Shown piece after piece: positions 1 to 22,172 of a stretch of 46,498 nt of DNA; within the stretch, counting starts at the first letter, position 1, and each line of letters opens with the position of its first letter. The notes beneath the pieces are model-generated. The model was not told where the DNA came from and did not search any database. It was given only the letters and a program-made list of their open reading frames with translations. The translations under genes were made by a program, and so were the position numbers. Location: contig QPGO01000039.1 in assembly GCA_008632985.1 (NCBI GenBank), forward strand, positions 558,001 to 604,498, read 5' to 3'. The stretch is from Psammoneis japonica. Taxonomy: Eukaryota.

Positions 1-3000
1 ACTCCATCATCAACCTCATGCAATTTGCATGCCAAATGAGATCCACAAAAAGTGCAATCAACAAAAGAGAGTCGAGTGGCAGCTTTCTCGCAAAACAACG
101 AGCAGTTGCTGTCGTTCTGTTGTTGGCGCCCTTGCCACAAATGTTCTTGAACATTTAACGTGATGTCATGTTCGAAACAATGAAGACATCAAAAAACAAT
201 GAGAACCGAGGACAGAGAGATCAGTCTCACCGCACGCAGACCGCAGCGAATCATCGCAAGACACAATGAAAAACAAAAGAACTGAACTGTTGCTGTGAAC
301 GAAAAAACAAGAATGTGAGTCATTGCTCAGTCGAGGCTGCTGTGATCCACGGAAAAAAAGTCCCATTGCTGATGCCAGTCGTCACTTTTAGAAGGTTGTG
401 AATGTTTGCGCAGGGCCCTGAGATTGTGGTTGCGTGAACGACGCGTCTCTTTGCCAAAATAAAGAGTGCCTTCACAAAACTCGCTGAAAGCAGCTCAATG
501 CAATTGGGCCCTTTTGTGTGTTCTTTTTCGTTGTTGTCATCGTCACATGCTCCTTTGTGCGTTCGATCCACCGGAGAGGTGACAATGTGATGGACGGCAG
601 GGGTTCGGGTTCTTTTTGCCCCCAAACACCCTGTCAAATGACTGCATTGATTTGGCGTTTTGTTGTTCTTTTGTCGATCGCAGTTGTCATGACGACACTC
701 ACAAGACAAAGCGCCTTTCTAAACTTCCGTTGCATTCTGTGTGGGGTGCCCTTTAAAGCGAGGAGCAAGAGAGAAAGCAAAAGAACTCATGGTGACGGGC
801 AACAGGGAGAATTTCCGTGTGCGCACCATCACAGGGAGCTCAATGGTGCTCCCCACGATCTCGGGTTTTTTGCCAAATTGTGGAAAGCCTGGTGCAGATG
901 CCTGCAAGATTGCTGCTTACAATGATCTCAAGGGTGTTGAGGCCAATGGACTGGACAGAAACCATGTGATGGTCAACGACATTCAAGCCGCTGACGACAA
1001 TTTCAAGCCCACAGGCAGCAGTGGTGACACCTGCAGTTGTGAGGAATGTGACATGCCGTTCACTGGATCGTTTGATGGTGGCGGACATGCCATTCGCGGT
1101 TTGTCCACATTTCTGGGGGAAGATCACGATTGTGACAGCACCGGCTCGGGTTTGTTTGGTGGTGTCGCTGGTGACGCCGACATCCGCAATCTCATCCTCA
1201 ATGACACCAAAGTTGAACATTGTGGCCACTGTCCAAACCATGCCGGATCACTTGCTGGATGTGTGGATGGTGGCACGATCCATAATGTCGCTGCAAGAAA
1301 TTCACAAGTCGAAGGGGATGTCTGTGCTGGTGGGCTTGTTGGATGGGCAGATGGGGGCAATTTCTCCTGCTGCCAGGTTCTTGGTGGGAAAGCATGTGGG
1401 GATGCAGCTGGTGGTCTTGCGGGATGGATTAAAAATGTTGCCATCAAAGAATGCAGTGTGCAAAACATCTCTCTGAAAGATGGGTGTGAACCGTGGTGTC
1501 ACAGGTCTTTTGGCGGTTTGGTTGGCCGAGCCGACTTCTCAGTCATCAACAATTGCTTTGTGGCTGGTGATGTCACTGTTTTGAGCAATTTGCCTGTGGG
1601 TGGCCTTGTTGGGGAAGCATGGGCAACGAACATGTCAAAGAGCCATTTTCCAGGTGATGTGAAAGGAGGTCACACCGCTGGTGGTCTCGTTGGCATGACT
1701 TACAAATCGTCGATTAAGAGCAGCTTTGCCACAGGTGAGGCCACAACAGAGAAGAGCTTGTGTGACGATGATGTTTTCACAGGTGGATTTGTTGGTCGTG
1801 ACAGCTCCGATGACTGCGAGTTGCGACTAGAGGGCAACCACTGCGTGATGGACCCTGCAGTTGGGGGCGAGCATGAGGCAGCCGACACCGAAGTAAAGTC
1901 GTGGAAAGCAAGTGCAGTGTGCCTCGCTGCTGGACAACACGGCGAGACCGTGTGTGAGCCTCTTGCACGTGGCAACGCAGCATTGTTAACACGTGCCTGG
2001 GAAGCACGACCACAGGAGGGCGTGGCTCCAGGTCTCAGGCAATTCTAGAAGGATGCTGAGAGAGCATCCGTGTGAAGCACACTAGCCCGTCGTCTGGCCC
2101 ACGATGGCAGCGTGATTCCACACGATGACATCACTCGTGCATGGCGCGTGATGGCTTGATTCGCACGATCCACAATGCAAATGCACGATCGATTTGATGC
2201 GATCCAAATGCGAACGAATGGGGATTTGGCAAGATTCCCCATTCGCACGATCCCATTTTCTCTGCTCTAAACTGGCTCACAATTTTCACAACGACAAAGT
2301 CGCAACACATCTTCTTTTCAGTGCCTGGCACATGCACAGGGCACAAGGAATTCTTTCGTGATCCCACCAATCCGCCACACTCTGGCTGGGACAGCAACAT
2401 TTGGGCCCAGCCACACAACAGTGAACACCCCCATCCAACCCTTCAGTGCCAATCTTCTGGTCAGAGCAATGCTCCCCCAGTTGCCGTTGATTTCCCTTTG
2501 TCAGGAATGATCAAACTGGACTCGTGCAAAAAACTTGATGACACGATCACCTTTCTGAGTCCGGAGCAAGATCAAACTGCTGACGTCAAGACTTGGGGAG
2601 TCCCCGGTGGAATGACTGCGACAAACAAACCTGGAAATGCAGCGACTGTTCGTCTCGAAATGACACCGACGGCGAATGCGCGGTGCAAGCTGTTCTTCAA
2701 GGCCCAAGACAGCAAGGGAGCTGTTGCCAAGAAGACGCTGCTTGTCACAGTGTCTGGCTGCAAGATGGCAAAGGCACCAAGAATGCGCTGCAAGGAACGA
2801 GACAAAAAAGCCATGTCGTCTTCAAAGTGCTGTGTTTGGACAACAATTGATGACGGGTCCAAATCTTTTGACTCCAAGCCTGTTGTCTTGACGCAAGTCC
2901 CTCCTCCGCCCTGCGGCGTCGGTGTTGCGGACGCAACACTCACAGCTGCGGACAGCGAAGGCCGCACAAATGCCTGTGCGAGGACTGCAACGGTTCGTCA

Positions 3001-3900
3001 ACCTCGGCATGGCGTCTGTCCTGTAAACAAGCCACCAGTTGTGTGCTGCAAAAATGGGGATAAAAGAGCCCGCCCTTCCCCACTTTGCAAGGTGTGGACG
3101 ACGATTGACTTCGATTCGTATGATCCCAACGGTGACACATTGACGCGCGTCCTGGACCCTCCGCCTCCCTGTGGCATTGGAAATAGAACAGTGACACTCA
3201 CAGTCACAGATGGCAAAGGGGCGTCCTCATCGTGCACAAGACATGTCAACGTTGGACCTCCCAGCGATGGCACTTGCTAATCCGGGTGCAAAAACCTGTG
3301 GAAACCAAGGGAGTCAGCGACGTTTAGGAAAGAACAAGACCTGTTCACATTTGGTCCTTCAGTTTTACCTGTCAACATTTATTTTGCACGGTTTTGACAC
3401 TTGTTGGATGCAGTCTTGCGTGAGTTTAGTTCCCACAGTGAACCAAGCAGGTGATGGACCGTTGCAACCTTGCCACAATGATGTTAGACAAACCGCGTGA
3501 CATTTGGAATGCAGAGTGTTTCGGCCATTCTGGCGGCGTTTGCCGTTGAGCGAGAAGTGCACTCCGTGATGCGAGCCAACGGCGAGCCAGAGAAGTGCAG
3601 AATGCTCTCCGCAACGCTGCTCCAACAGATGTCTCTTCAAAGTTCTTGTTGATGGAACGGGCCGCTTGGGCGCCGTGTTTGCCGCATCACACAGGGCTGC
3701 CTTTGACCTTTGAAACGCTGGTTGCACCATGGATTACACACATTCGACATTGTATGTTGCATCATGGGTGGGAAAGGCGATTTGTGCACAGCTGAGAAAC
3801 CATGATTTGAAGGACCACCGAACTCGTGTCCATTTCTCCATCTTCAATCTGCGCAAGTCCGACCACGATCCATTGCATGTCGGGGATCTATCATGTTCAA
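1..3900. other. TpA-depleted domain 1
   Basis: No TA seen in 181-360, 920-1282 or 2270-3023. Many residual TAs lie in TTA/TAA contexts. CpG is retained. Normal TA density returns by ~4240. Confidence 0.9.
638..3280 (+). pseudogene. Secreted GLUG-motif protein with C-terminal Ig/HYR/PKD-like domains, degraded by TA->TG/CA mutation
   Basis: Signal-like MTALIWRFVVLLSIAVV at 638. ORF 741-2048 has FTGSFDGGGHAIRGL, GLFG and repeated GGLVG motifs. ORF 2321-3280 has WDSNIW..HPHPTL and two IDxxSxD..PPPPCG.G..VTLT..D repeats. Tyr is nearly absent and Cys/His are in excess. Exon structure is unresolved. Confidence 0.65.
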
Positions 3901-4437
3901 CTTTTGTCGAATCTCGATGGCCTCAGACACTCAGAACTAACAATGCAAGCCGCCCATGTTCAACGTGCTAGCACCTTATGAAAACAGTGCTCTCACAGAC
4001 TTCGTCGCTGATGCAAGTGCGCGGGGCGACATTGGAACCCACTGTCATGCTTCTGCCGTCGATGCTAATTTCAATGGCATGTCATTCGAGAGGAACATGG
4101 TTACAAGAAATAGAGAAAACAGAAAGAGTCGTCGTAGCAAAAGAGAACAAGCAACAGCATCATCTTCTGATTTTCAATTTCTGATCAAAAAATGCGAGAA
4201 AGCACGACGGCCCGAAACAGAATGAGCCAAGTCAAACAAAATAGGAGTAGACAGATTGTAATACGAACATTAGGTGAGAGATTCTTAATACGCTTATACA
4301 TTAATAATTGTACTGATTCTACGCAATACTGACGTGCTGTAGTTGCCGTATCTTTTGGATAGGCCCTATTTTTCCATTTATTTCGAATCAAAAAATCATT
4401 CCCAACCCCAACAAGACGACGTTCTTGCTTTCCAATC

Positions 4438-5471
4438 ATGCTGCGGCAATGCCTCTTCCTTTTGTTTCTCTCTTTGATTTCCCATTCATCATTAGCCAAG
4501 AAGAATGATGGCGATTTCATTGTTGCGGGGTATCTCCCGAATTATCGTTTTGATGATTACAATACAACAGCCGCCGCTCCATACCTGACGGACATTTTTT
4601 TGTTTTCAATTGAAGCCAACAAGTACGGATTGATTTCCACGTGTTGTTTGGAGGAACGTCATTACAGTATGGATGATAGTAGTATTCGTCGCTGGGTCAC
4701 GGTGGGTGGTGCGGGACGGAGTCATGGTTTTTCAGCTATTGCAGCGTCTCCCCAAAAGCAAGCAAACTTTCTGCAACGACTCGTTGATTTGTGGTGCGTT
4801 GTAATTGTTGTTGTTGTTTTGATGATATAAAAATCTCAATCTACCATTCATTACTCTCTAGTCTCCAACATGGTTTGGTGGGTGTCGATTTCAATTGGGA
4901 ACAACCCACGTCTCAGGCCGAATTTCAAGCGTACATGGCGATGCTGTTGGAAGCGTGCAAACTGCTGCATTCTCAAAAGCTCTTGGTGAGTCTGTCGACG
5001 CGCTTGCATATAATACCCCACCAAGTTGTGGAGGAGTTGGATCATGTGCTGGTCAATACCTATCAAATGCCAGGACACGCCTACCATGCGGAATACAGCG
5101 TCGTGACGAAGCACGTGGAAGAGCATTGGTTATCCAAATTTCCCCGGCACAAGCTACTTTTGGGTATTCCGGCATATTCTGTTTTGGGCAGCGATACGAA
5201 AACCTACAGGGAGCTAATGGAGGATGCCATGAAATCCCATCCAAACCGAAATGATTGGGATGATTTTGAAGAATACAAGGGCTACCTGTTTGAGTCTCCT
5301 CACTCTGTACGCAAAAAGGTTGCGTACGCCCAAAGCAAGGGAATGGGTGGTGTCTTTTTTTGGGAACTGGGACAAGATTTGCAAGTCCCCGGTAATTCTG
5401 GCGGCATGTTGTTAGAGGCGGCGTCCCCACAAGCAAACGAACGACGAGAGGACAAAGAGCAGGAATTGTAA
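4438..5471 (+). CDS. GH18 chitinase-like glycoside hydrolase, 2 exons (intron ~4794-4861)
   Basis: Signal peptide; VAGYLPNY, VTVGGAG, GVDFNWE, KLLLGIPAY and GMGGVFFWELGQD motifs. A GT..AG intron restores the frame. Ends in EQEL. Confidence 0.88.
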
Positions 5472-5611
5472 AATATGAAAGACGATGGATTGTGCAAGCA
5501 AAACTCTACAAGAGTTATCGCAAAATTGCGGGTAAAAATGGTTGTACAAGATGTAGTACAATATCTCCCACAAAAAATCAATCATCATTCCTCTCGTTCG
5601 CTCGCTCGCTC

Positions 5612-7080
5612 TTATTCCGGAACACGGTAATAACGAGATTCGACAAAGGGCATTTTGGTCACCTCAGCCTTTTGCATTTTGTTTCGAATCTTGATTTGAA
5701 TTTCGGTACCCGCCTTGGCGGATTTCGTCTCGACATAGCCCATGGCAATTGGCTTTTTCAGACACGGACTAAACGTTCCACTCGTCACTTTTCCAATGAG
5801 GGTTTCACCGGTAGCGTCGTAAATTTCCGCATCACTTCGTGCCGGAGCCTTCATGCCCATGATACCCACGCGTTTTCTAGACACCTTTTTGAATTTACCC
5901 TCGGGTGTTAAAATGTGTTCGGCACCCAAGAAACCACCCTCGGTGCGACGGCGGCTGCCGGGACCACCCATGGTCCAACCAAGCGTGCCCTCGGTGGGTG
6001 TCGTCGTTTCATCTAGGTCGTTTCCATAGAGACAAAGACCAGCCTCCAATCGGAGCGAATCTCGAGCGCCCAAGCCCGTGGGCAAAACGGAGGGATCCTC
6101 CAATAGCTTGGATGCAATCGAAACGGCATGCTCGTGAGGCATGGCAATTTCAAAACCGTCCTCACCCGTGTAGCCGCAACTATAAAAAGTGAGAATAATT
6201 TTATGCGGAAGTAGTATATGAGAAGGCAACCAAGAAACAAAAAGTATAGAAGCAAAATTCAATAGTAGAACATCATAACGTACCGAGTAATACGACATCC
6301 ATCAATACCATCCAATGTCGTGTTGGTTCCCGTCATGAAGGCCATGTTGACCAAATCAAATCCATCCGGCAAGAGCTTGGCGACAGCCTCCGCCGCACCG
6401 GGTCCTTGCACGGCCAAGAGCTGCATGCTGTCTTCCAAATATTCCATGCACACTTCGCCATCAAAATCCTCCATTTGTTTTCGAAAATGCTCCATGTCGC
6501 CAAATTTCGTGGCACCGTTCACCACCATGTAAATGTAGTCGCCGGCATTGGTAATGACCGTGTCGTCAATGATTCCGCCCTTTTCGTTTGTCACCAGAGA
6601 CAAGCATCCCGAGCCCTCGCTTAGACCGCCAATGTCGCCAACCACGATTTTTTCTAAAAACTTGACGCGGTCCTTGCCGTGCCATTTAATCTGTAAATAT
6701 AGGATGAAAGTATTGGTGTTTAGCTCGGTATCGATAACAATCAGGCATGCAAGTCGATTTTCCACTACAGCAGCCAAAACAATTGTTACACTCACCTGTC
6801 CCATGTGAGACACGTCAAAAAGAGACGATTTTCCCTCGGAACGACAATGCAAATGCTCCTTCATGACGCCACCGTTTTCACCCTTGTACAAGACGGGCAA
6901 TTCATAGCCGGCAAAAGGCACCATGTCACCTCCGAGCTCCTTGTGCAAATCATAGAGCGCCGTTTTCACCAAGGGTTCGTCGGAAGCGGCGGCAGCAGCA
7001 AAGGACCGCTTAGAATTTGCAACAACGACACGACGTCCCAAGGCGAGACCCGCAGCACGACTTGACGACGAAAACACCAT
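5612..7080 (-). CDS. gcvT: Glycine cleavage system T protein (aminomethyltransferase), mitochondrial; introns 6691-6795 and 6180-6283
   Basis: KTALYDLH, FDVSHMGQ, GGIIDDTVI, TRCGYTGEDGFEI, GLGARDSLRLEAGLCLYG motifs; Arg/Ser/Ala-rich presequence. Confidence 0.97.
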
Positions 7081-7854
7081 GGTTGCAAAGGAATGATGGA
7101 TGCGTCGTTGTGAGAAAAGTGAGAGCAAAGATTTTTCTGGTACTGAAATCACGTTGAAATCTACGGATACTTTGTATTCGAAGTAAGTACGTCATACCTA
7201 CCGACGTCATCATATCGTCACATCCACGTCATCGACTCTTTGCATTCTGTCTGTTTGATCTGTTTGTCCGCCAAAAATATGATCGTTTTCCCGATTTGAA
7301 TTTTGAATTTTGATTTGTGTTGTTTGTCCGACCTCCACTTTATTTTCATCTCCATGATTGAAGTGTGAATATAATGTACGTCATATTCAACGAATTCAAC
7401 AGAGAACTCCAGAATCACCTTTTAGCCAATCAGATCGTCAAGATTTCGAAATGTTTCCGTTGAACAGCTGTTCTTTCTTATCATCAACGAATATTCTGTG
7501 ATGATTCAAACAGGACGTCACGACTGATGGATGCTGTCAACCACGTACCAATCACTTCATGGTATGTTTCTACGTATATTCTACGAGGAATTCTTCGCAA
7601 AGGAGGTGGCGGGCGGCGGGCGGCGCGCCGGCATTTTTGCGTGTGCTTTTTCTGCCCGTGCTTTTGCCGCGGTATTTGCATCGGCAAAAAACGTTCTTCT
7701 GCTTGTTGCGATCCAACAACCATCCAACGAATTGTTGGTTCAAACGGGATCGAACAACGAACAAGAGGGTGTCACAACTCTAGAGAGCAATCATATCGTT
7801 CGTTCGAAAGCGAGTGCAGTGCATATAGAAGACGAGACTTTCATCAAGACGGAC

Positions 7855-8178
7855 ATGAAGAAACAGGTCTTTTCGTTGCTTTTGTTCTGCAGCACGGTTA
7901 CTTCGGGTCAAGCCTTTGTTGTTGTGTCGACTCATCCGCAGCACACTGACCATGCACTTCGATTGACGCCCGATCAAGCACCCTATCTTGAAGAATGTGC
8001 GGCAGATCTCATGAAGGCTGCTATTGTAGCGCAGGCGGCGGCTCGAGAAGCTCAAAAGGCTGGAGCAGAATCGGAATACTACCGTGTAGTGCCACGCAAG
8101 TCTCGAGTGCCGGTGTGGTGTCAAAAGGTGATTCATAGCATCACACATCATCATGATGGACAGCAGCAGCAGCGTTGA
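7855..8178 (+). CDS. Small putative plastid-targeted protein of unknown function
   Basis: MKKQVFSLLLFCSTVTSGQAFVV looks like a signal peptide plus A-F motif; 107 aa. Confidence 0.6.
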   Translation: MKKQVFSLLLFCSTVTSGQAFVVVSTHPQHTDHALRLTPDQAPYLEECAADLMKAAIVAQAAAREAQKAGAESEYYRVVPRKSRVPVWCQKVIHSITHHHDGQQQQR

Positions 8179-8630
8179 TGTAAACAAGAAAGAAAACAAG
8201 CATGTACAATGAAAACAGCGCATACGTTACCGAATCAATGCTTGCGCGTCCATTCATCTCTAGGTGTAACGAAACCTATAACTAATCTAGTTCAAGAGTT
8301 ATATGGTCGAAATAATCTATGCTAGCTGGCATATGATCATATCTTTTATATCTAGAGTTAAGCGGCGAGTTGCACACTCTAGTTTTGAAAAGATTACAAC
8401 TCCATCTAGCTATACACAGACTGCGTGATCTAGACACTCCTCTACGGTATGTTTCAGTGTTAGCGCCATAGTACTGTCTTTTCTCTTTGCTTTACCATCA
8501 CAGATATGTCAAGCCTCACATTCTCGAGCACTTAGACGACCTTAGCAGGTACAACAAACAGCTACAGGTACCAACCAGAAAACTAACTACGCAATACAGT
8601 AGCTACGAAAATTTAAGTTGCTATGGGCTA

Positions 8631-9704
8631 TCATGTCTTTTTGTCTTTTCCCCTCACTTCCCCTCCATGAATGGTATAAGTCCCATAATTCTTGTTTGGG
8701 TCGTACGTTTCCCATCGACTGGCTGGAAAAATGTGCTTGTTGCGCTCATACCATTTCCGCTCCACCACTTTACCGGGATGCGATTCATCCTTTTCAATAC
8801 GTGAATCAATCGGTCCCACCCGGACATCGTCATGAACATCAAAATGAAAAAGCGGTCCCGACTTGCCTCGAGCCTTGGTGACAATCAAATCATAAAACGA
8901 AACATCAAACGGAAGAATCAAATCTTCCTTGACATACAAGAGTGCGTCGGCGGCGATGGATTGGAGTTCCTTGAATTCCTTGCATAAATCCTTGCGGACG
9001 ACTTCGAGAAAGGCGCCAATCGAATCGCCTTTTTTGCAAATCACCTTGCGGCGATGGCCGGATCCGTCCCAATACGAATAGACAATTTCGAGTTTTTCGT
9101 CTCGCATGGCAGCTTGTTTTTCCGTCCACTCTTTTTGCAGGGCTTGGCGTTGTCGTAGCAAGTCTAATTCGCGTTGCTTGTCGGGTAGAAACGATGTGTC
9201 TGTGGAGGGATCCTTGAATACAGCCTTTTGTGTTTCTGCTTCTTCTTGTGTTTCTTCGTCTTCGAGTGTCTCGTCCTCATGAGCAAAACTCAGTGTAGAC
9301 ATGGCCTGACGTTTCTTCTTCTTTGCTTTTTTTGATAGCTTTTTCTTTTTCTTGGCCTCTTGTTTCAATTCTTGTGCTATAATTTCATTCTCTTCAATAA
9401 GATTATCGTCTTGTTTCTTTTCTTTAGCTTGCGCCGCCTTTTTAAAGTCTTCCGCCGAAACGAGTCCAATCGTTTGAGAGCGAAAGGTTTGTTCGGCTTG
9501 TGATAGGGACGAGTTGCCTGCAAATTTTTCGTGAATGGACTTGGCCGTATTCTGATCGACAATTTGTTTCTTGCGTTGTTCAAACTCTTCTTGCTGCAGT
9601 TGTCGTTTCTTTGTAAGGGATGCCGCACGAGCCCCCGCGACGTTGCCCTCGACCGTGTGAATGCCAGATTCGGGTAAACGAAAATTTGCAGAGAAATCAC
9701 CCAT
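8631..9704 (-). CDS. XAP5: XAP5/FAM50 family nuclear protein
   Basis: [66 protein letters not shown]. Confidence 0.96.
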
Positions 9705-9997
9705 TGTTTCTTTGTAGATACTGTTGTAAAATTATGATAAGGCGCTAGGGAAGGCTCGAACTGACAGAGGAAGAAAGCATGAAAGGAGGAGCAATGAGCA
9801 ATACAAGTCCAAACCCAACACAGACAACGCAATTGCGGTTTCCGTATTTTAAAATAGAAGATTAAGGAAGCCTATGTAGAGCGGAAGGTAACAGCAGAGG
9901 GAGGCACGGAGGTAGCTGTAGAGACGGTAGAGTAAAAGGGTCGATGGACGCAAGACGAAGGGCGTTTTGTGGAAGGTATGGGTGAGGAGGGGGCAGG

Positions 9998-10344
9998 TGT
10001 GACAATATTCATATTTGCATGTTTTTACAACAACATCGGACCTCCACGATTCCAATCAGAGATCCAAGATTCGAACCCCGTGTGCGATGCTCAGTCTCGA
10101 ATCCCGCGGAAGCCGAGTCACGAATGCGATGTTTGTTCCTAGCTTCGCGCTTGTTTAACTTCGCGTTTCCTTTAGATGGCAGCTGCATCTGCTCATAAAA
10201 ACTGCTCATAATCTTTCTAACGTATTGATTATCACCTCTCAACTTTTGGTTCAATAAAGTTACTGATTGATTGTTGTGTCGCAATCACAGCTTTTGATCA
10301 CTGAAAGTGCAGACGAATCTCAGAATTCCGGCTACTTTCCCACA
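9998..10344 (+). repeat. 5' LTR
   Basis: TGTGACAATA...TTTCCCACA; no differences from 16227-16573 seen by eye. Confidence 0.97.
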
Positions 10345-10358
10345 CGCTTCCTCTGCGC
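10342..10358 (+). promoter_or_regulatory. Putative primer binding site
   Basis: (ACA)CGCTTCCTCTGCGC at the 5' LTR end. Its reverse complement GCGCAGAGGAAGCG resembles the D-arm of eukaryotic initiator tRNA-Met. Confidence 0.55.
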
Positions 10359-10418
10359 AACCTACAAGTTAAGTCAATCGATCTTAAGCTCTCGATTCTA
10401 CTTTACTTTGCTGTTACT

Positions 10419-11924
10419 ATGGTCACGCAGACACGAACCGCGGCTGCTCTAGCTGCCTCTGTTGCAGCTCCCGCTGCTGCACCCGCTGCAGCTCCTACCA
10501 CTGCTGCTGCTCCGGCAACAGCACCTGCTCCTGCAGCCGCTCCAGTTGCTCCTGTACCTCCCCCAGTCGTTCCTCCCGGTGCACCTCCAGGAGGAGGTGG
10601 CGGAGGAGGTGGAGGAGGAGGCGGAGGTGGAGTCCCACCAGGTGGAGTCCCGCCAGGTGGACCACCATTGGCACCTGTGCCACCACTGCCGATCTTCGCG
10701 TTGACTCCAGGTCAACACCGTCCCAACAACTTCATCGACTACGGCACATCGCAAGGCCTCAAGCTTTGGAACGCCGCTACTGCACCGCTGCCGCACGAGT
10801 TCAACGGCGATTCAGAAGGTCTCAAACGGTTTTGTGAGACACTCAGTCAACGAGCTGCCGAGGCAGGATGGAAAACAGGGGCAGGAGACATACTTACCAT
10901 TCCCGACGCGAATGGAACTCCACGAGATCTCATCTCCGAGTACGGACTACTCACTCTACAGGATGTTAGAACCCACGCGAACACCTTCGCGAATCTACCT
11001 ACGCGACAAGCACAGAACAATGTGCAGATGGCCGAGGCGATCTCTCAATCCCTTACGGAGGAAGCAAGAGACAAGATATTGGCTGAGATAGATTCCTATA
11101 CGATCAATGGAAATCAAATCGGCACACTATTCTTCAAGCTACTTACGCAAAAGGCCATCGTTGACACACGCTCTACCACTAACTACTTCCGCGAGAACTT
11201 GTCAAGCCTGGATACCTACATGGCGGCTGTTAACTCGGACATCGAAGAGTTCAACAAGTACGCCAAGCTCAACGTTGATGGACTCCAAGCTAGAGGAGAG
11301 CAGTGCGACGACCTTATCATGAACCTATTCAAAGGATACGCCGCAGCTGCTGACGAAGTATTCGTCAAGTACATCATGTTATACAAGGACAGGTACGACG
11401 ACGGTGAGGAATTCACGCCGACGCAAATCATGACGTTGGCACTGAACAAATATACTAACCTCAAGCGCGAGAAGAAGTGGGGAGCACTGTCACCGGCTGA
11501 AGAGCAAATCGTCGCGCTTACAGCCAAGGTGGACTCCATCAAGGATCAGAACCTTCAGCTATCTAAAGCTTTGAAGGCCAAGGCTGGTTCAACCAAGGAA
11601 AGAAGCACACGGTCAAGGAAGACCAAGACTACTCCACGTCAGAGACAGAAAGCGGACGAAGCCTGGAAGAAAGTCCCGCCTAAGGAGGACGCTCCTAAGA
11701 AGACAGTGAACGGTCATCAGTACTATCACAAGCGCGTCAACTATCGCGACTATCACTGGTGCCCATATCACACTGCTTGGGTCATACACTTACCTGATGA
11801 TCCGGGCAACCAAGGCTGTAGACTCCGCAAGCAACAGTCTGCTCCATCCACAGACACGTCGGACAAGAAAGTCTCCTTCGCAAGTGCTATCTCTACCATC
11901 CTAAATGAAGTGGATCAAGAGTGA
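10419..11924 (+). CDS. gag: Copia Gag
   Basis: First ORF after the LTR; Ala/Pro/Gly-rich N-terminus, helical core, C-terminal WCPYH..WVIH...C motif. Confidence 0.85.
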   Translation: MVTQTRTAAALAASVAAPAAAPAAAPTTAAAPATAPAPAAAPVAPVPPPVVPPGAPPGGGGGGGGGGGGGGVPPGGVPPGGPPLAPVPPLPIFALTPGQHRPNNFIDYGTSQGLKLWNAATAPLPHEFNGDSEGLKRFCETLSQRAAEAGWKTGAGDILTIPDANGTPRDLISEYGLLTLQDVRTHANTFANLPTRQAQNNVQMAEAISQSLTEEARDKILAEIDSYTINGNQIGTLFFKLLTQKAIVDTRSTTNYFRENLSSLDTYMAAVNSDIEEFNKYAKLNVDGLQARGEQCDDLIMNLFKGYAAAADEVFVKYIMLYKDRYDDGEEFTPTQIMTLALNKYTNLKREKKWGALSPAEEQIVALTAKVDSIKDQNLQLSKALKAKAGSTKERSTRSRKTKTTPRQRQKADEAWKKVPPKEDAPKKTVNGHQYYHKRVNYRDYHWCPYHTAWVIHLPDDPGNQGCRLRKQQSAPSTDTSDKKVSFASAISTILNEVDQE

Positions 11925-14900
11925 CTGCTCTACAGGTTCACTCTGACACTGCTGCTGTCCTTGCAGATAGCCGTCACTGTGTCAGTGCTCCTGATAGCGG
12001 TCGCTGGCGTCATGAAATGTGCAGCACCGATCTGGATCATACTACTATTCATGATGCTATCCCTTCCTTCAGAAAAGTGTAAGCGCCTGTCACATGCCGT
12101 AATGACGCTGGGTGAGTGGGTCATCTCACATATCCTGGCTGAACTAGGCACAAGACGAGTTAAGACTTACCAGCGACGGCCAACGACGAGGTACTGCGCA
12201 CGGTATCATACGTCGACGAGGCCAGGTCACCGCTCCAGAGTGGCCACCAAGAAGGCTCGCTATGTCATTACGCGATACAAGACGGTTAGAGCGTACAACT
12301 CAACCACACCATACCGTCCCGAGCGAACGGAGCCCACTTACGATTCGGACTCATTCGTAATCGGTGTCGATTCGCATTCTTCCTGCACCATGTCCAACGA
12401 CGAGGCACACTTCATTGGTCCTCTTCGCAAATCCAACAAAGTGGTACTCGGTGTCAAGGGCTACTTACGTGCTAAGGGAGAAGGAACAGTGCAGTGGGCA
12501 ATTGAGGACGACATGGGACGAGTGCACAGCATTAAAATTCGAGACGCACTCTATGTACCCGACTTACCTCATTGTCTTCTCTGCCCGCAGCAATGGAGCC
12601 AGCAAGCTAATGACCACACGCCAGAGCCTCACGGAACCGTATCTTGGACTAGGGACGACGGACTATTACTCATGTGGGATCAACGCAAGTATCATCGCCT
12701 GATTCCATGGTCCGCCAACTCTAACGTCGCCAAGATGCGCTCCGCACCCGGTTCCAACAAATACCGGACCTTTGCAGCCGCTGTCGAAGAACAAACCGAT
12801 ATCGAAACTATCGAGCACGTGGCCTATCAAGCTCACATCATACCACCAGACGACGAGAGTATTGCGAATGATGACGAGGCTGCAATTGATACAGACGTCT
12901 TCAGAAGTCCATCCGAGACACGTCCTTCCGAGACGCAAGACGCACGCAACACTACTGATGAGGATGCTCCTGTCTTATTTGAGCCAACAGACGGAGCAAG
13001 TCGTTCAGACTCAGACGAGGAAAACCTAAGGGATTTCACGACACCGGAGGTACAGCAGGACTTACCGGAACCCATCAACATCATACCAAATGATGACGCC
13101 CTTGCTGCCACAGATGACCAGGGTGAACTATTGCGTTGGCATTACCGCCTGGGCCACATGTCATTCAAAATGATAAAGCTATTGGCCGCCCTAGGCATTC
13201 TACCGAAACGCCTTACAAAGGTACACAACCCAAAATGTGCCGGCTGCCTATACGGTGCCATGACGAAACGACCATGGCGCTCCAAGTCCAAGCGGAACCG
13301 ACGAATCCACTTGGCAACTTCGCCTGGAGAAGCCGTATCCGTCGACCAGCTCGAAAGTCCTACTCCTGGACTGATCCCACAGCTCAAAGGGAGACCTACG
13401 AAACAAAGGTATCGAGCAGCGACAATTTTTGTTGATCATTTCAGCGGATTGGGATACATATATTTGCAGAAAGGACTTACCTCAGCCGAGACGCTCGAAG
13501 CCAAGCACGCTTTCGAGGCATTCGCACGCCGGATGCACGTCCGTATTCAACACTACCACGCCGACAATGGAAGATTTGCTGATAATACTTTCATACAAGA
13601 CGTCAAGAAGCAACAGCAAACAATATCCTATTGTGGGGTCAACGCCCACTTCCAAAACGGCATCGCGGAGAAAAGAATAAGAGACCTCCAAGAGCAATCT
13701 CGGAAGCAACTCCTGCATGCAAAAGTGAGATGGCCAACGGCTATTGAGTTGAACTTATGGCCAAGCGCTCTCAGGAACTCAAACGAGATCAAGAATCACT
13801 TACCGAATCACGAGGACGGCTCTTCTCCGCTGGAACGTTTCTCGTCCGTCAAGGTCCAGCCTAATCTCAAACAACACCATACCTTCGGCTGCCCCGTCTA
13901 CGCCTTGCACAACCGGTTGCAGGGAGGAGGTAGGCTGCCTAAGTGGGACCCAAGGGCAAGGTTAGGAATCAATTTGGGACCATCAACAAGACACGCAGGT
14001 TCAGTTACCTTGGTTTTGAATTTGCAGACCGGACTCGTATCGCCGCAATTTCACGTACAATTTGACGACTTCTTTGAGACTGTTCGTCCATCTGCTGGGA
14101 ATCCTCCTACATTCTCACAATGGCAAGGCATTACAGGTTTCAGACAACTCAAGACAAGGAGTACTTTCAACATCTTTGGGAAATCAAGTGACGTACCGGT
14201 TGAGGGATCAGTCCCTACCACAACGGAACCACCTGAGCCGAATTCGGATATCCCGTCTCAGCTGCTGCATCCTACTGATACGTCTACCACTGATGACTCA
14301 TTTGACAATGCCCAACCGGATGATGAAATGCTATACACGCCTCCAGATGATTCTGACGCACCATCTGAGCCACAGCGCACTATGGGTCAACCCAGTACCA
14401 GTAGGTCCGGCCGACAACGACGCCCGACCGAAAGAATGCGCGAGAGCCAACTACAACGGGCTCAAGGCATTGTCTCCTACAATGCAGAGGCAGAGGCATA
14501 TTATGATGCGATGCACGAGGATGATTACAAACTGCAGGACGATATGGACTCACCTATCTCTTTTCTGGCGAGCTCGGACCCCGACACCATGTACTTTGAT
14601 CAGGCCATGCGTGAACCTGACAGAGACGAATTTATCAAGGCCTGTGTTAAGGAGGTCAATGATCATATTGAAAGGAAACATTGGATACTCATTCCAAGAG
14701 AGGACGTACCTGACGATGTTGATGTTCTCCCTTCGGTATGGTCTATGAGGCGCAAAAGAGATATTAAGACCCAAGCCGTCTACAAATGGAAGTCCCGACT
14801 TAATGTGCACGGTGGAAAGCAAGAGTATGCTGTCAACTACTTCCAGACCTACTCTGCCGTGGTCTTCTGGTTCACTATCCGGCTCCTACTGATCATTGCC

Positions 14901-16183
14901 ATTCTTAAGAAGTGGCATACACGCCAAGTCGACTTCGTTCTGGCGTATCCGCATGCCGATATCGAATATGATATGTACATGGAGTTACCTGCAGGAATTG
15001 AAACAAAACATGGCAATGGTAAGACTCATGTTCTGAAGTTGCTCAAGAACTTATATGGACAAAAGCAAGCAGGGAGAGTATGGCAAGAACACTTACGTGA
15101 TGGATTGTTAAGGATTGGTTTCGCACAATCGGCGGTTGATGAGTGCCTGTATTTTCGTGGCAATGTCATTTTCATTCATTATGTCGATGACGGTATCTTT
15201 GCATCCCCTGACAAGTCTGCTATTGACAAGGCGATACAGGATATCAGAGATGAGAATTTTGATATTGATGATCAAGGCACTCTGGACGACTATCTCGGTG
15301 TCAACGTCGAGACACTACCAGACGGCAGAATGAAACTTACCCAACCTCACCTTATCAATCAGATACTGGAGATGGCCAATATTCCAAAGAGACTACCAGA
15401 TAAGTCTACTCCTGCTCCTTCCTCCAAGATCCTCCACAGGCATATGAGTGAGCCTGCTTTCCAAGGGAGCTTTCATTACCGATCCATCATCGGCAAGCTC
15501 AATTTTCTGGAGAAGAGCACTCGACCGGATATCGCTTACGCGGTGCACCAAGTCGCACGCTTTTCTTCCGATCCCAAGGTTTCTCACGGTGAAGCCGTAC
15601 TATGGCTCTGTAAGTACCTAAGGTCAACCAGAACTGAAGGTATTATACTACAGCCCTCAACGGACAAGTCCCTTGAAGTTCACGCCGACGCGGACTTTGT
15701 GGGCAATTGGAATAAGCTGACTGCACCCAATGACGTCGGCACTTCCAAATCTCGAACTGGGTTTGTCATCACCTATGCAGGGTGTCCGATTGTCTGGACG
15801 TCCAAGCTACAGACTCAGATCGCGCTCAGCACTACTGAAGCTGAATTTATCGCTCTTTCGGAAAGTCTTCGAAGCGCCATCCCAATTATGAACCTCATTC
15901 AAGAATTTATGGATCACGGTCATAATGTCCCTTCCAAGACACCAGTCGTACATTGTAAGGCTTTTGAAGACAATTCTGGAGCATTGGAGATCGCGAGATT
16001 GCCTAGATGCGTCCTCGGACAAAACACTTCAACCTCACTCTCCACCACTTTAAAGACCATGTTCGCAAAGGTCTCATATCAATCCTACCAATTGATACGG
16101 CGGATCAGATTGCAGACATTTTCACCAAACCTCTACCACAGAATCTCTTCGTTAAACACAGGAAATCGCTCCTTAAGTGGTAA
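11925..16183 (+). CDS. pol: Copia Pol (protease, integrase, RT, RNase H), in frame with gag; 1-nt frameshift near 16005
   Basis: IGVDSHSS (PR); WHYRLGH..C..C, VSVDQ, HADNG, QNGIAE (IN); LYGQKQAGRVW, YVDDGI (RT); HADADF, STTEAE, EDNSGA (RH). The shifted frame continues MRPRTKH...QIADIFTKPL to TAA at 16181-16183. Confidence 0.95.
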
Positions 16184-16226
16184 GACGTTTTCGAGTCATC
16201 ATTCCACCCGACATTGTTGAAGGGAG

Positions 16227-16573
16227 TGTGACAATATTCATATTTGCATGTTTTTACAACAACATCGGACCTCCACGATTCCAATCAGAGATCCAAGATT
16301 CGAACCCCGTGTGCGATGCTCAGTCTCGAATCCCGCGGAAGCCGAGTCACGAATGCGATGTTTGTTCCTAGCTTCGCGCTTGTTTAACTTCGCGTTTCCT
16401 TTAGATGGCAGCTGCATCTGCTCATAAAAACTGCTCATAATCTTTCTAACGTATTGATTATCACCTCTCAACTTTTGGTTCAATAAAGTTACTGATTGAT
16501 TGTTGTGTCGCAATCACAGCTTTTGATCACTGAAAGTGCAGACGAATCTCAGAATTCCGGCTACTTTCCCACA
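16227..16573 (+). repeat. 3' LTR
   Basis: Copy of 9998-10344, followed by GCAGG. Confidence 0.97.
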
Positions 16574-18249
16574 GCAGGGAGAGAGGAGGTGAATCGGAGG
16601 ATGTGCGTAGAAAGGTGAAGAACAACGTTGTAGCCAAGAGTTTGGGTGGCCCACTGGGATGGGGTGGCTGTACGGCAGGTGTTTCCAAAGCGATCGGCGG
16701 ACAGGCGACGCCATGCGGAGTCAGCAGAGGGAAGGATTGCAGACGGAGATGATAAAGCATAGAGGAAGGCGGAGTAGGAGGCATCAGAGTGACGAAGGTC
16801 AGAGGAAGAGGACCAGGGTGGCTTGGGCTGAGAGCAGACGGAGGGGGATGTAGAACCAAAGAGCAAGCGGTGGGCAAAGTGGCCGAGACCACCAAGGTGA
16901 TCTACAGTGAAGGGGAGCAGAAAGATGCCATTGTTGTCAAGCGAAGAAACAACAAGGGATCCATCGGCAGAGGAAGTGGAGGGGCCAAGAAACTTCAATC
17001 TCGCGCTCGAGTGGTGTGCCTCAGTTAAGACAGGAGAAAAGGGGGCAGGCAGACCTGGAGGAGGGCGAGAGGAAGCTTGAGGGACGGTGACGTCCACTGC
17101 AATGTAGTGATGGCGGGAGGGAGCGGAAAGGGAGGCGGGAGGGGGGATTGAAATGCCGACATCGGCGGGACGGAGAAGCGGGCGGGTGGGGAGTAGGTTG
17201 GTGGGTTCAAGATGAACGTCATTGGGGGATCGACAGAACTCTGCAAGAGGACCCAAAGTTTGGGCTAGGATGAAAACAGTGTCACGGAGACCATTGGAAA
17301 GCTTGGACTTGTGAGCACGGCGGCAAGAAAAGGCATGATCACCACAGGCATCCAGAATGGCATGGCCACAGGGACAGGGAGTGTTGACAAGGGACGGAGG
17401 AAGGATGGGGAGACGAAGCTTACGAAGGGCGGCAACAGCGCAGGCGTCCGAAGAAAGGCAGGAGCTTGGAAAGCGACGAGAAAAGGAATGAAGAGGGAGG
17501 CTTGTAAGCGGAGATAGCAATGAAGGGAGTGAAGATTGCACGTCGTAAGATGAGTTAGCAAGGATGGAGGTCACTGCTTGTTGCTGATGTTCATGGCAGA
17601 GACGACGGGCCAGGCCGGGGAGAGTGGCCGATTTAACCAGGGCAGCCAAGGAAGAAGAGGAAAGGGTAGAGGCGGAAGCCAGAACGGGAGCATGACGGCG
17701 GAAGAGCGCATGGAGTCGTAGGGAAGAGCGAGGGTTGGACCAGGAAGACAGGGAGAGCCGAAAGCAGCGCGGAAGGGAAACAGAAGCGCCAGATGGCAGG
17801 CTGACACCGTGCGAAGCAAAGCGGAACGAGCGGAGAAGCGACACCAAGAAGGAAGGAATGGCGGTGGCTGTTGGGTCCCGGAGACCGAACCCGCCTAAGG
17901 AGGCAGGAAGGAAGGCGATGGCAATGGAGTGGTCGGGAAAAGGAGCGGCGAAGGAAGTGACGCAGTGTAGAAAGCGGTGAGTGATGGTGAGGAGGAAATC
18001 TTGAAACGGAGAGGTCCAGAGAAAGGGGTCGGGAGGATCATCGGGGTCGAAGTTGCAGTGGAAGTCAGCGCCAAGGAGGTGAGCAGAGGATGGAACAAAA
18101 CAGTGCTTGAAGAGTTGAGCCTGGGTTTGGGTCCGTTGGGCCCGGTGGGCCTCGCACGCAGTTGGGGACGTCTCCAGCCAGCCAGCCGCTGGCTGAAAAA
18201 ATTCTGTCCGTCAGTGCGTTAGGGGCACAGCATTCCACGACCCAACGCA

Positions 18250-21200
18250 CTGTTGGCGCAATTTGATGACGATGACGATGGCAAAAGACGGCTCCCGGGG
18301 GCTTCTATTTTGTGCACTACAATGTGTCCAACGCCTTCCACAAACACTGTCACACCCAATGCAAGTGATGATGAAGAAAGCTCGCTGCAATTCGAGGTGT
18401 CCGTTGCCAACGGCAGTGATGTGTGCAAGGCGGGGTTCGTGCTTCCATCGTCACCCGCTGGATCCATGGCTCCAATTCCAGTGGCAAAGATTCGTGGAGT
18501 CAAGGCTCTCATTGACTACACCATGCTGCCAAACAACATGAAAGACAATGACAATGGCATGTGGACGGATCCAAAGCTCCACACCGAGCTTTGCAAGAAT
18601 CTCAGAGCACTCCCGCGCGGAACGAAAACTGCTGCCGATGGACGTCGCTTGCCAATGTCCCTCATCCTTGATGCAAGGACACTTCAAGAGAAGCTCATTG
18701 TAATTAATTGGTGGTGCAGCTTGTCTCCGGATGATAAAAGGAAGGAGTTTGACAGATTGAAGTGCATGTGTCAACGTCCTGCTGTTTCCAACGAGCGCGT
18801 TCCGGAGCCCGAGAAGGTCGTGCTTTGTTCCGATGCTCAGGAAATGCTGGACGAGCATGTCAGGAACAGTGCAAGTGGGAAAAAGCTTTCAGGAAAGTGC
18901 CAACGCACTCGTGAAGACTTGCTGGTGAAGCCACACCATGCAATGTCACGTCCTGTCCGCAGAGCAGTGTGCGAGATGTTCCCGTCAACTGCAAGTTGTC
19001 TCTTGTTTTGGAGCGAAATGTTGGTGCACCACGCAAAAATGGAGTTGCTCCACTAGATGAAGCCATTCCACCTCATCCAAAGAGAATTGTTGTCATTGGT
19101 CTCAACCGCAAGAACCTTCCTTTTGACGATGACTGCATCAAATGCATGACTGGCGATGACGACAGCACTGTGCTCTGTGGTTGCTTCATGACAATGAGAG
19201 TGAGACTCACTCAGAGAGAAAAGTGAAGCATGGAAAGAGTGAAATTGTCAAGAACTCAGCAGAGATGAGCCAAAACACTTGTCACACATCATGCATCATC
19301 AACTTGGATTCAGAACTCTGAGTGATCCAACACTCTCAGCTCGTGCGAGCACACCAGATGCCACTGACACTGTGTCAAGATTCAGCCAAAGAACTTCAAC
19401 TTGAGCCTGCTGTCATCTTCTGCTCTCTCTGTGACTCCATTGAGATTGAGCAAGGCTTCAAAACAACTGGAGTGGATTGCACCTGATGTGTGCAATGCAA
19501 TTGGGCGCTGCAGATTGTCTCAGCTGTGACTGCAACAAACCTTTTCTGTCAAGACAGAACTGATCCATGCGCGCTGGGCACTCCCTCTGTGCACAAAACT
19601 TGTCACCCAGCATTTCCTGTCTCCTCTCTTGTGATCCTGCTGACTGGAACAAAGTTGTTGAACATCTGGCTTGTTGCCAACATGCCAAAGATGTGGGATC
19701 TTCTTGGTGGTGACAAACAAATGTGGAGGAGAGCACAATTCATTGCACTCCTCGACCCCCCACGGTGTCACATCAAGGTTGTTCAGAATGGCAGCAAAGT
19801 CAGACAATGCCACTTCCCCAATTTCATGTGTGTCTTTTTTGCTTGGCAAGAACACTGCCAGGACTTTGTCAGCAGCACTTTCCTTCATCCATTTGTTCCA
19901 ATTGGTGTGATTTCAATCAAGTGGAGGATCCTGATTGCAGGGCAGTTCACTGATCAGAGGCACCTGCAACAGCATTGCTGTCCATTCAGCAGCACTGCCC
20001 TGACCGTCCTTCATGTTGACATTGTCCCCAGAACAAACAGGAGGCTTGTGAGTTCCAAGATCAATGCGCTGAGCCATTGCCTCTGCGCTGCCCTTCTACA
20101 AAGATCATGTGAAAGCACACTGCAAGACTTGACAAGTCTCATCCTTGCCAAGAGCTCACAAAGCTGTGTTTGTTGGCTTGTTTGAACTTGAAATGACAGA
20201 ATGTTTGCAGCACAACCAACGCCCTTCTTTGGATCCACTGCACGGACTGTCAGATCTTGGCAGATGGCCACAGCAAAAACCTGGGGCTGTTGCCCGGCAT
20301 CTTTCAGGTTGATGTTTTGATGTGGCACAACCCCAGTGCTCATCGCAAAAAACCCTTCCCGAGCATCGTGAATCAACATTTGCCACATGTCAAAGCAGAT
20401 CATCAAGAGTCTGCACATTTGAATGCCCCTCTTCCTTGTTGCCTTCTGATGAAGCACATGACAATGGCATCACAGCCGAATGGAGCCAAACATTGGTGTC
20501 GACGTGGTTTTGTTCATCAGTTGCCGAGGGAAGGAACTCAGCATTGGCAGACAGAGTGCACTGGAGCTTCTGCAGTTCAAGTTGGTGATTCTCAGAAAAT
20601 GGTGTCTTGTGCATCATGTTTGCCAACAATCCATTTCCCACCCAGTCTCTTTGATCTGATTCACCCATCTTTCTCAAATTTGCTGGCCACAGACGGAATG
20701 CATCGACAACCTCATGAGGCTCAACAATGCTTCGTGAAATCTCTTGCACCTCAAGCTCATCTCCATCAACATTCCTTGCTCTCTTCTGTCCTGTCCTTGT
20801 TTGACTTTTTGTTGTTGGTGCTCTCCAAATTTGATGGCTGGTGATGGCATGGTCACAAGCCGTGCACTGAAGCGAGCTCTTTCCTCCAGATGCTTCCAGT
20901 TCTGACAGAGAGCAAAGACACAAAAGATGGCCACAAGGATTGAGCTCAACTCTTGGCATCTTACACTTGCCAGCAATGTCTGCTGCACATTGTTGGCAAT
21001 GCGCTGGAGCTTCCGTCATCATGGTGAAACATGTGCCACTCGTCACTCTTGGTCCAGGATCAAAATTGGACATGCTGCTGAGCTTGTCAGCTGCTGCACT
21101 TGCCTCAAGAGCACTCTGGAGGCCAAGTGTCACAAGCTGTCTCAAGCTCTCTGTGTCCTCCTGTCCAAGTGCGCCATTCTGGAAGTCACGAGTGTGATCA

Positions 21201-21900
21201 ATGCAGAGCCCCATCCTCTTGCGTCATCCATCCACGTGAGAGTGTGCATGGCGCGAGTTTGGGGCAGGAAATCAAGTCATTTTTTCCCTCACAGCACATG
21301 AGCAGCACATCACAAGTGGGAACATGGTGCTTCCCAGTCAAGTTTCATTGGCTCTGGGAGCATGCAAGTGACAAGTGCTTGCTCTGCAAGTGTGCTGCCA
21401 GCCAGTGGTCCTTGGGCCACCTCGCCAAGCCTGTCACTCACGGCACCAGCGGAAGTCTCGAGTGCAGCCACTGTGTGAATCAAGGCTGGTGATTGGTTTT
21501 TGTTTGTCACTCATTTGTGGCCTGGTTCAATGTGAAAGAAACCCCCATTTGTCTCTAAACTTACAAAACCCGCCTTGTTTGAGTGAGAGGGAAAGTTGGG
21601 GTTGCTGTTTGTCCTTTTGTTTTGGGATTCCTGATCAATCTCATTGAGTCACAAGCTGCACATTTTAAACATGGCCAGTGCTCATGGTTCCTGCATTCTG
21701 CACAGCTCAACAGCTGTTGTCAGTGCCTGTCTTATTGGTGCAATGTCAGTTGAACGTAAAATGCTGTTGGTGAGTCTTCTTGGTTGTTGCATTCTGTCTG
21801 TTAAAAGAGTTCACATCAGGGAGCACTGTGGCGTTTGAAAAGTTGGTCTTGAAAATCAAAATTTCACACAAGTCTAAGCGATTCCTCAAGCATGCTTGTA
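18250..21900. other. TpA-depleted (and partly CpG-poor) domain 2; unidentified coding relic with a RING-like motif
   Basis: No TA seen in 19056-20096 and very few up to ~21550. The minus-strand ORF 20390-21214 contains C..C...NPCGHLLCLC...QCTAC. Confidence 0.8.
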
Positions 21901-22172
21901 AGCAATGTCGAACAGCAGCAACGTCGCCTGTTGTTCCCCATCAAGACAATTTACACAACATTTACCGATCTGTCGCGCACTACACACCAGTTTTGAGTTT
22001 TGAGTCATTTTACAGATGCGCCTAGTAGTAGCAGTGATGATAGAACTATTAGAAGGATACGATCGCAGTTGTGACTAGATTTAGGAATCTAATAAGGACT
22101 AATCTAACAAAATGTAATTGAGAAGACAAATGCAGCGGTCCGTGACGGCCGATAGGGCTCCAAACGACGATT

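Follow-up and report, generated by a model that had tools for sequence, protein, structure and literature searches.

Two TpA-depleted domains in a Psammoneis japonica contig as probable products of local TA-to-TG/CA hypermutation in a diatom nuclear genome

What removes nearly every TpA step from a chromosomal domain several kilobases long, within genes as well as between them, and spares the genes next to it? The question is raised by a 46,498-bp stretch of contig QPGO01000039.1 of Psammoneis japonica (the whole of which is referred to below as the window), the first kilobases of which contain hardly any TA. An original prediction, made from the letters of this DNA, read the deficit as A-to-G change at TpA on both strands, TA having become TG or CA, and proposed a region-targeted process acting on silenced or repeated DNA. 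The analysis reported here favours such a process and extends it to a second block: both blocks are most probably nuclear diatom DNA that has undergone local, context-specific hypermutation, in which TA was converted to TG or CA until almost no TA was left.

Observed/expected (o/e) ratios of TA, TG/CA and CpG were computed in 1-kb bins over the window, which contains 1,637 TA in all. The first block (B1, 1–4100), depleted of TpA and enriched in TG/CA, runs past the left end of the window. Its TA o/e values in the bins from 1 to 4000 are 0.09, 0.13, 0.06 and 0.27, compared with 0.38–0.82 (4001–18000) and 0.50–0.81 (22001–46498) outside the blocks, while those of TG and CA are raised to 1.41–1.81. 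With the expected count taken from the normal density of the rest of the window, 29 TA are found in 1–3900 against 161.5 expected (Poisson P = 1e-37). The TA-free tract of about 750 bp that first drew attention is a gap of 756 bp (2268–3024). The depletion predicted for 1–3900 is thus real, with an edge that lies further to the right, at about 4100, and is gradual: TA o/e is 0.31 at 3844–4100 and returns to 0.73 at 4101–4400. CpG is retained, as had been claimed, being only mildly reduced (o/e 0.63–0.81 by 1-kb bin and 0.59–0.92 by part). All parts of B1 are affected, namely the 5′ non-coding part (1–722, TA o/e 0.08), a first open reading frame (ORF) part on the plus strand (723–1909, 0.12), an inserted repeat (1910–2343, 0.17), a second plus-strand ORF part (2344–3280, 0.10) and the 3′ flank (3281–3843, 0.20). 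Since the loss hits all three codon phases as well as these flanks, codon bias is not its cause, and on this point too the first reading holds.

The original prediction recognized a single block and overlooked a second, more extreme one. B2 (18201–21850) contains 16 TA against 151 expected (P = 9e-45), with a TA o/e of 0.15 at 18201–19000 and 0.05 at 19001–21850, a TG+CA o/e of 1.52–1.77 and TA-free runs of 1,043, 865 and 594 bp. Its core (19001–21850) is also poor in CpG (o/e 0.28), TA and CG both having been turned into TG/CA. No convincing terminal repeats were found around B1 or B2.

The dinucleotide balance points to the kind of change involved. Counted on both strands, the TA fraction of dinucleotides, 0.0414 in normal DNA, drops to 0.0074 for B1 and 0.0019 for the B2 core, and that of CA (equal to that of TG) goes from 0.0728 to 0.0972 and 0.1102, respectively. 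In B1 a loss of 0.039 is set against a TG+CA gain of 0.049; in the B2 core, losses of 0.0395 (TA) and 0.0378 (CG) are set against a gain of 0.075. Relative to normal DNA, TA in the blocks stands at 0.05–0.18 and CA/TG at 1.2–1.5 times, AA remains at 0.80–0.90 (0.90 in B1 and in the B2 core) and AT at 0.66–0.82, and CG is not raised. The loss of TA balances the gain of TG and CA, AA and AT are little changed and CG does not go up, which together argue that TA was changed to TG or to CA alone and never by a double hit to CG. The losses of TA and of CpG are separable, because B1 and 18201–19000 lost TA (o/e 0.08–0.20) with most of their CpG kept (0.59–0.92).

The direction of the change could be read from a second copy of the B1 gene. 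In the window, the first part of this gene (723–1909, plus strand) encodes GLUG-motif repeats (Pfam PF07581, E = 4e-14) and is nearly devoid of Tyr, and the second (2344–3280, plus strand) encodes weak HYR-like repeats (Pfam HYR, E = 0.009, under the curated cut-off) and carries the HPHP and both PPPPCG motifs. The two are separated by a 434-bp insertion (1910–2343). Two public sequencing runs of one sample, X1 and X2, contain this DNA, and their contigs were compared with the window over 1–9990. An X1 contig (depth 80) joins 1909 directly to 2344, omitting the 434 bases, whereupon the two ORFs fall into one frame (checked by hand from the coordinates). The summed depth over 1666–2331 is 8,145–69,873, compared with an X1 depth of about 54 in single-copy DNA and ordinary genes, and loose contig ends occur at 1912, 2318 and 2345; the omitted piece is therefore a high-copy repeat that was inserted into the copy present in the window and is absent from the sister copy. 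The presence of both a high-copy insertion and a sister copy in B1 agrees with the predicted targeting of silenced or repeated DNA.

The sister copy keeps TA where the window has lost it, both in the X1 contig that spans the joint and in an X2 contig of 975 bases that covers 2528–3492 with 80 differences and five gaps relative to the window. X2 contigs skip 68, 105 and 105 bases at 4792–4861, 6178–6284 and 6690–6796, two of these pieces having GT..AG-type ends; as shown by these spliced joints, X2 behaves like a transcriptome and the skipped pieces are introns of a GH18 gene and an aminomethyltransferase gene. The TA-retaining sister copy is hence present in an RNA-like run; over 1000–2331 X2 is blank and uninformative on expression. 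The differences between window and contigs comprise the 40 best-supported ones, which are considered here, and 237 further ones, with the proviso that contigs may drop variants. In 24 of the 40 the window has TG (13) or CA (11) where the reads have TA, so that a check proposed at the outset, the comparison with a copy that has retained its TA, indeed yields substitutions enriched for TA to TG/CA, on both strands. The two kinds are interleaved along the molecule (13 runs, with 12.9 expected by chance, in a hand count). At eight places the window has TG/CA and the reads CG, at three the window has CG and the reads TG/CA, and five are other changes; over all places, the tally for X1 is 66 C>T, 64 G>A, 27 A>G, 22 T>C and 37 transversions. 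Within the window itself no paralogue is available for polarization, self-BLAST having returned only the long terminal repeats (LTRs) of a Copia element and three unrelated duplications. An HYR-like ORF at 22173–23039, considered as a paralogue of the B1 gene, was rejected for lack of a close relationship.

The base that follows the target A appears to matter. TGA gained per TAA available is 0.08, compared with 0.84 for TAC, 0.70 for TAT and 0.67 for TAG; TAA is over-represented among the TA that survive (chi-square P = 1.6e-7), and the 3′ base at the 24 polarized sites is C in 12, T in six, G in five and A in one (P = 0.054). The base lying two places 5′ of that A may play a part too (gain of 0.11 for ATA>ATG), a figure confounded by the difference in composition between blocks and reference.

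At the protein level, the change is seen as a replacement of Tyr by His or Cys. Tyr makes up 0.3–0.5% of residues in the B1 ORFs, as against 2.7–4.4% in housekeeping ORFs, and TAT and TAC together account for three of 803 codons, as against 128 of 3,889. At 1396, 2426, 2432, 2685 and 2913, five of the 40 places considered, the sister copy encodes Tyr and the window Cys or His. Of the motifs in which His or Cys had been suspected to stand for Tyr, HPHP is YPYP in the sister copy (2426 and 2432) and the first PPPPCG is PPPPYG (2913); for the His in RNHVMVND, the aligned residue is Tyr in 14 of 20 homologues, and the second PPPPCG is not among the listed differences. In the alignment of the GLUG part, the closest relatives found for which are bacterial or metagenomic with 25–34% identity, none of ten homologue Tyr columns has kept Tyr in the window, four reading His and one Cys, whereas other residues are kept (Phe in three of four columns, Trp in two of three, Leu in 14 of 19 and Gly in 42 of 60). 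V>A exchanges in the GLUG repeats, considered as GTA>GCA, were dropped, the codons being GCC, GCT and GCG, an ordinary variation of the family.

The same holds for the two decayed genes of B2, which are convergent and belong to unnamed families. The gene of family A (18322–19309, plus strand) is read in three different frames: tblastn with relative P0144 places its pieces in frames +1, +3 and +2. This family has 33 relatives in a library of 1.84 billion proteins (best E = 1e-41), and no informative Pfam domain was found in the 13 scanned, the distant match P0164 carrying unrelated domains. The gene of family B (20125–21223, minus strand) has an in-frame stop and a frame change: tblastn with P0143 matches 20893–20315 in one frame with the stop, then 20358–20125 in another. 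Two relatives were found in the protein search (E = 3e-28), a search of the viral collection with this family gave none, and a metagenome scan gave one locus, the DNA of which has a normal TA o/e of 0.48. In family A, a conserved Tyr column (Tyr in seven and Phe in one of eight aligned homologues) reads Cys in the window; in family B, the three columns in which both relatives have Tyr read His, Cys and Cys. In both blocks, distant homologues carry Tyr at sites that read His or Cys in the window; a sharing of these residues would have spoken against hypermutation. The sister copy and the alignments show that the ancestral state is TA, with Tyr codons, and that TG/CA is derived, on both strands. 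In one further column of family B, P0142 has Tyr, P0143 Cys and the window His; P0143 itself may carry a Tyr-to-Cys change of the same kind, which would hint that the family has been targeted in other organisms too. A RING-like Cys/His pattern read by eye upstream in the family B gene has no Pfam support, and Pfam searches of 11 ORFs of B2 and five of the B1 flanks at E values up to 5 returned noise only.

The favoured explanation, hypermutation in place, may be set out as a series of steps. At TpA, the A of either strand would be changed to G, giving TG or CA. Because both strands of one molecule carry changes, the process would act on DNA and not on RNA. After one hit, the partner A would be preceded by C instead of T and would be protected; such an absolute requirement for a preceding T would account for the lack of any rise in CG. 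An A on the 3′ side, as in TAA, would make a poor substrate, and targeting would follow silencing or duplication. Of the stop codons, the process would only destroy TAA and TAG, TGA being made solely from TAA, so that proteins would be ruined without premature stops and long false ORFs would be left behind; the ruined B1 gene still has ORFs of 441 and 360 codons. By analogy, the enzyme could tentatively be sought among polynucleotide adenine deaminases of the ADAT/TadA kind, an assignment somewhat short of an even chance. The natural tRNA target of these enzymes, A34, always follows U33.

All three affected genes are broken, one being split by the high-copy insertion and two showing frame changes or a stop. 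The targets appear to be host-like genes that were silenced or duplicated, no viral relative having been found. Long-silenced domains seem to have been hit: B2 is low in CpG, as DNA under long-standing methylation would be, and B1 possesses a sister copy along with an inserted repeat; nothing but the CpG decay of B2 hints at this directly.

The original prediction knew of no description of such a process, and on this it has been superseded. In mutation-accumulation lines of the chlorarachniophyte Bigelowiella natans, two integrated viral regions acquire mutations at about 1000 times the rate of the remaining genome; of 231 mutations in them, 230 consist of A>G or T>C, each at TpA, the genome holds 124 clusters of windows poor in TpA and rich in CpA+TpG, and an ADAT2-like deaminase has been proposed, as given in the accessible part of the preprint (Mettrop et al., bioRxiv 10.64898/2026.01.13.699255), which makes no mention of diatoms. 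As far as that part goes, the likeness is extensive: A>G or T>C only, TpA only, both strands, blocks of kilobases, as in the integrated giant-virus or virophage DNA of B. natans, together with a deficit of TpA and raised CpA+TpG over runs of 1-kb windows, affected genes that can mostly not be annotated, and spared neighbours. In the present bins, which are o/e values and may differ slightly from the Rho of the preprint, TA is 0.06–0.27 with a mean TG/CA of about 1.49–1.72 at 1–4000, and 0.01–0.17 with about 1.46–1.82 at 18001–22000, the TG/CA mean of two of the eight block bins being slightly below 1.52. The differences are that the host here is a diatom, a stramenopile; that the targets, for which no viral origin was found, unlike those of B. 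natans, comprise a copy of a host-like surface-protein gene interrupted by a repeat as well as two decayed genes from unnamed families; that the depletion is deeper (o/e 0.05–0.15 against a Rho of 0.45 for the virus region in the accessible part of the preprint, two measures that may differ slightly); that one block is also CpG-poor; that an effect of the 3′ A is seen; and that the process is known here from a historical pattern, not from live mutation. The comparison supports the conclusion that this is the same signature as TpA hypermutation in B. natans, now in a diatom lineage, described once before, in 2026. No report of TpA-specific hypermutation in diatoms was found in the literature, and the available part of a mutation-accumulation study of Phaeodactylum tricornutum describes mutation biased in the ordinary GC>AT direction, without a hotspot of this sort (PMC6604790).

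That the window is nuclear diatom DNA is judged from its coding content: the aminomethyltransferase ORF (6259–7191, minus strand) has its best relatives, at 58–74% identity, in many diatoms, and every named match among the 120 listed is from a diatom. The other genes of the window are likewise ordinary nuclear ones, encoding GH18, XAP5, DXS, a mitochondrial carrier, M43 peptidases and an FG-GAP protein.

Several observations weigh against hypermutation in place and should be set beside the above. For 35 of the 40 listed differences, the X1 contigs that cover the place all disagree with the window's letter, both versions being seen in X1 at only five (2989, 3139, 3147, 3411 and 3436), so that the window version of much of 2344–3571 lacks support from the contigs shown. 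The sister copy may be either an allele or a paralogue. The effect of the 3′ neighbour rests on 45 surviving TA and on differences in composition, and at the 24 polarized sites it reaches P = 0.054. The pattern is historical, no new mutations having been seen here; a hint of them, and the only one, comes from the X1 contig at 1293–1585, which departs from the window at two places alone, TA standing against CA or TG at each. A survey of Pfam matches and genes in the window revealed no deaminase gene, and searches of Pfam and of a viral collection gave the targets no viral or clearly foreign origin, unlike those of B. natans. Finally, a high-copy element beside B2 is only mildly TA-poor, and no trace of the process is seen in a young Copia retrotransposon that lies between the blocks; there is accordingly no support for the notion that repeats are targeted without distinction.

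Among other explanations, the one that fares best, improbable as it is, invokes error-prone repair: in methylated, silenced DNA, T:G mismatches arising from the deamination of 5-methylcytosine would recruit patch repair by a polymerase resembling Pol eta, leaving A>G changes at TA. Pol eta misinserts opposite T, favouring WA motifs. The B2 core, where CpG and TA were lost together (o/e 0.28 and 0.05), would suit this scheme, as would the eight CpG losses and three gains of the window relative to the sister copy of B1. Yet AA, the other WA motif, keeps 0.90 of its normal level, compared with 0.05–0.18 for TA, the two decays come apart in B1 and at 18201–19000, as noted above, and the error spectrum of a polymerase would hardly remove 82–95% of TA without other A:T changes. 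Since AA is not depleted, Pol eta, one of the enzymes named in the original prediction, fits poorly.

A further possibility, very unlikely, is that the blocks are edited retrocopies, in which RNA underwent A-to-I editing, by an ADAR-like enzyme on double-stranded RNA or an ADAT-like one on messenger RNA, before being reverse-transcribed and inserted. Retroelements are active here, as the identical LTRs of the Copia element attest, no intron is visible in the B1 gene, and U is favoured before the edited A by TadA/ADAT and ADAR, as discussed in the accessible part of the preprint (bioRxiv 10.64898/2026.01.13.699255). A single edited RNA strand would, however, give A>G only, whereas 13 TG and 11 CA are interleaved on one molecule; the flanks and the 434-bp insertion are depleted as well; AA is not depleted, although ADAR accepts A or U on the 5′ side; and in B. 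natans, according to the same part of the preprint, cultured lines acquire the changes in place.

It is very unlikely that the blocks are an artefact in which a DNA modification of TA (and CpG) in silent chromatin was miscalled as TG/CA by a long-read base-caller. The letters at the 35 places at which X1 and the window disagree, mostly TA in X1, are what such miscalling would produce, so that an artefact is less improbable within 2344–3571 than elsewhere. Ordinary DNA, too, shows discrepancies between the window and X1, seven substitutions and five indels, some in homopolymers, having been counted in 3,038 bases (6833–9873); because of these, the source of the assembly is not X1 alone. X1 contigs nevertheless reproduce a TA-poor part of B1, matching 1293–1585 (window TA o/e 0.06) with two differences, both CA/TG in the window and TA in the contig, and 1556–1938 (TA o/e 0.19) with none. 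Together these cover 1293–1938, which has five TA against about 37 expected from base composition, and one of the contigs extends 29 bases into the insertion that is unique to the window's copy. At the five places with both versions, X1 holds each at about half depth. Moreover, the other copy also differs by two-way CpG changes, transversions, five indels and the 434-bp insertion, and these many differences outside TA mark it as a different copy and not as the true read-out of the same DNA.

A native composition, be it that of viral or bacterial DNA transferred from a TA-avoiding source or the outcome of selection against TA, would accord with the bacterial or metagenomic relatives of the GLUG part and the rarity of the B2 families, but is scarcely credible given that the sister copy in the same runs retains TA and Tyr, that Tyr occupies, in relatives, the positions of the window's His or Cys, that the DNA of the family B relative has normal TA, that an inserted host repeat and the non-coding flanks are equally depleted and that the viral collection holds no relative of family B.

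Set against known systems, hypermutation in place resembles, in its effect, the repeat-induced point mutation (RIP) of ascomycete fungi, in which transitions specific to a dinucleotide ruin a duplicated or repeated stretch, non-coding parts included, and spare the neighbours; B1, too, has a sister. Its chemistry and direction are the opposite, as RIP makes CpA into TpA, raises TA and makes stop codons, and in the stretch compared here, heavy mutation is confined to one copy of the two. RIP itself was rejected, TA being depleted and not enriched and the stop words in the six frames of B1 being TGA 160 times, TAA 27 times and TAG 15 times. The decay of 5-methylcytosine in methylated transposons and repeats shares the end products TG and CA and explains the CpG loss at 19001–21850, but it cannot remove TA, which B1 and 18201–19000 lost while keeping most of their CpG. 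With the ADAT2/3–TadA enzymes, known from tRNA A34, mRNA editing in the sexual stage of fungi and engineered adenine base editors, the process shares the A>G change and the T or U directly before the target A, a likeness also drawn in the accessible part of the preprint. Their natural substrates are RNA loops, unlike the footprint described here, which lies in a double-stranded chromosome, on both strands and at nearly every site of a 4-kb domain. The avoidance of a 3′ A seen here would be compatible with such enzymes.

A broader proposal can be put forward only as a conjecture, with the odds somewhat against it: that diatoms possess, and with them much of the breadth of the stramenopile, alveolate and rhizarian (SAR) lineages, an active, chromatin- or copy-directed defence in which a DNA adenine deaminase erases every T-A step of an invader or of a silenced gene copy, dealing with a single copy or allele each time and turning Tyr into His or Cys without creating stops. 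Such a system would be the mirror image of RIP, independently arisen and working alongside cytosine methylation. Should TpA hypermutation be at work in diatoms and a chlorarachniophyte alike, it would be no curiosity of a single alga but a widespread eukaryotic route to the inactivation of unwanted DNA, with a reach like that of RIP or APOBEC editing. Transformation and gene editing are feasible in some diatom species, and in these the enzyme and its targeting signal would become accessible to experiment; a natural enzyme that makes A-to-G changes in chromosomes would also be of interest to base-editing research. More immediately, hypermutated pseudogenes with long stop-free ORFs will be annotated as genes, some Cys/His-rich 'orphan' proteins of algal genomes may be such relics, and TpA-poor blocks distort estimates of substitution rate and GC bias.

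The DNA that surrounds the blocks bears on how they were chosen. The complete Copia retrotransposon (9997–16573, plus strand), with RVT_2 and gag-pre-integrase domains and a TA o/e of 0.68, has LTRs of 348 bp and 100% identity (9997–10344 and 16226–16573) and, read by eye, a target duplication of 5 bp (GCAGG); its insertion is probably very recent. The retrotransposon splits the high-copy element that adjoins B2 (9847–9996 and 16579–18200), which has a TA o/e of 0.35 and a TG+CA o/e of 1.25, a summed depth of 3,424 over 9658–9990 and loose contig ends at 9847. A minus-strand ORF of 549 codons (16561–18210), rich in Ser, Pro and Leu, contains a Cys-x-Cys...His...Cys pattern; its reading as the end of an R2-type element, with a zinc knuckle and a restriction-like endonuclease, found no support in Pfam or the PDB (best E = 1.4). 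Further to the right, 28899–30468 and 33526–35048 form a 1.5-kb duplication of 78% identity that carries peptidase M43 (pappalysin-like) genes, and TA is normal in both copies, which indicates that not every duplicate is hypermutated. TA-rich intergenic stretches adjoin the ends of both blocks, at 4101–4400 for B1 and 21851–22170 for B2.

Some minor observations complete the description of the window. In the GH18 gene (4434–5002), an X1 contig differs from the window at ten of 569 bases, far above the rate at 6833–9873 (seven of 3,038); this excess could reflect a local peak of heterozygosity or a strain difference adjoining B1. A search of the whole window against Rfam gave no match. A tandem duplication of 190 bp with 84% identity lies at 26882–27071 and 27090–27281, and the assembly contains a single N, at 44279.

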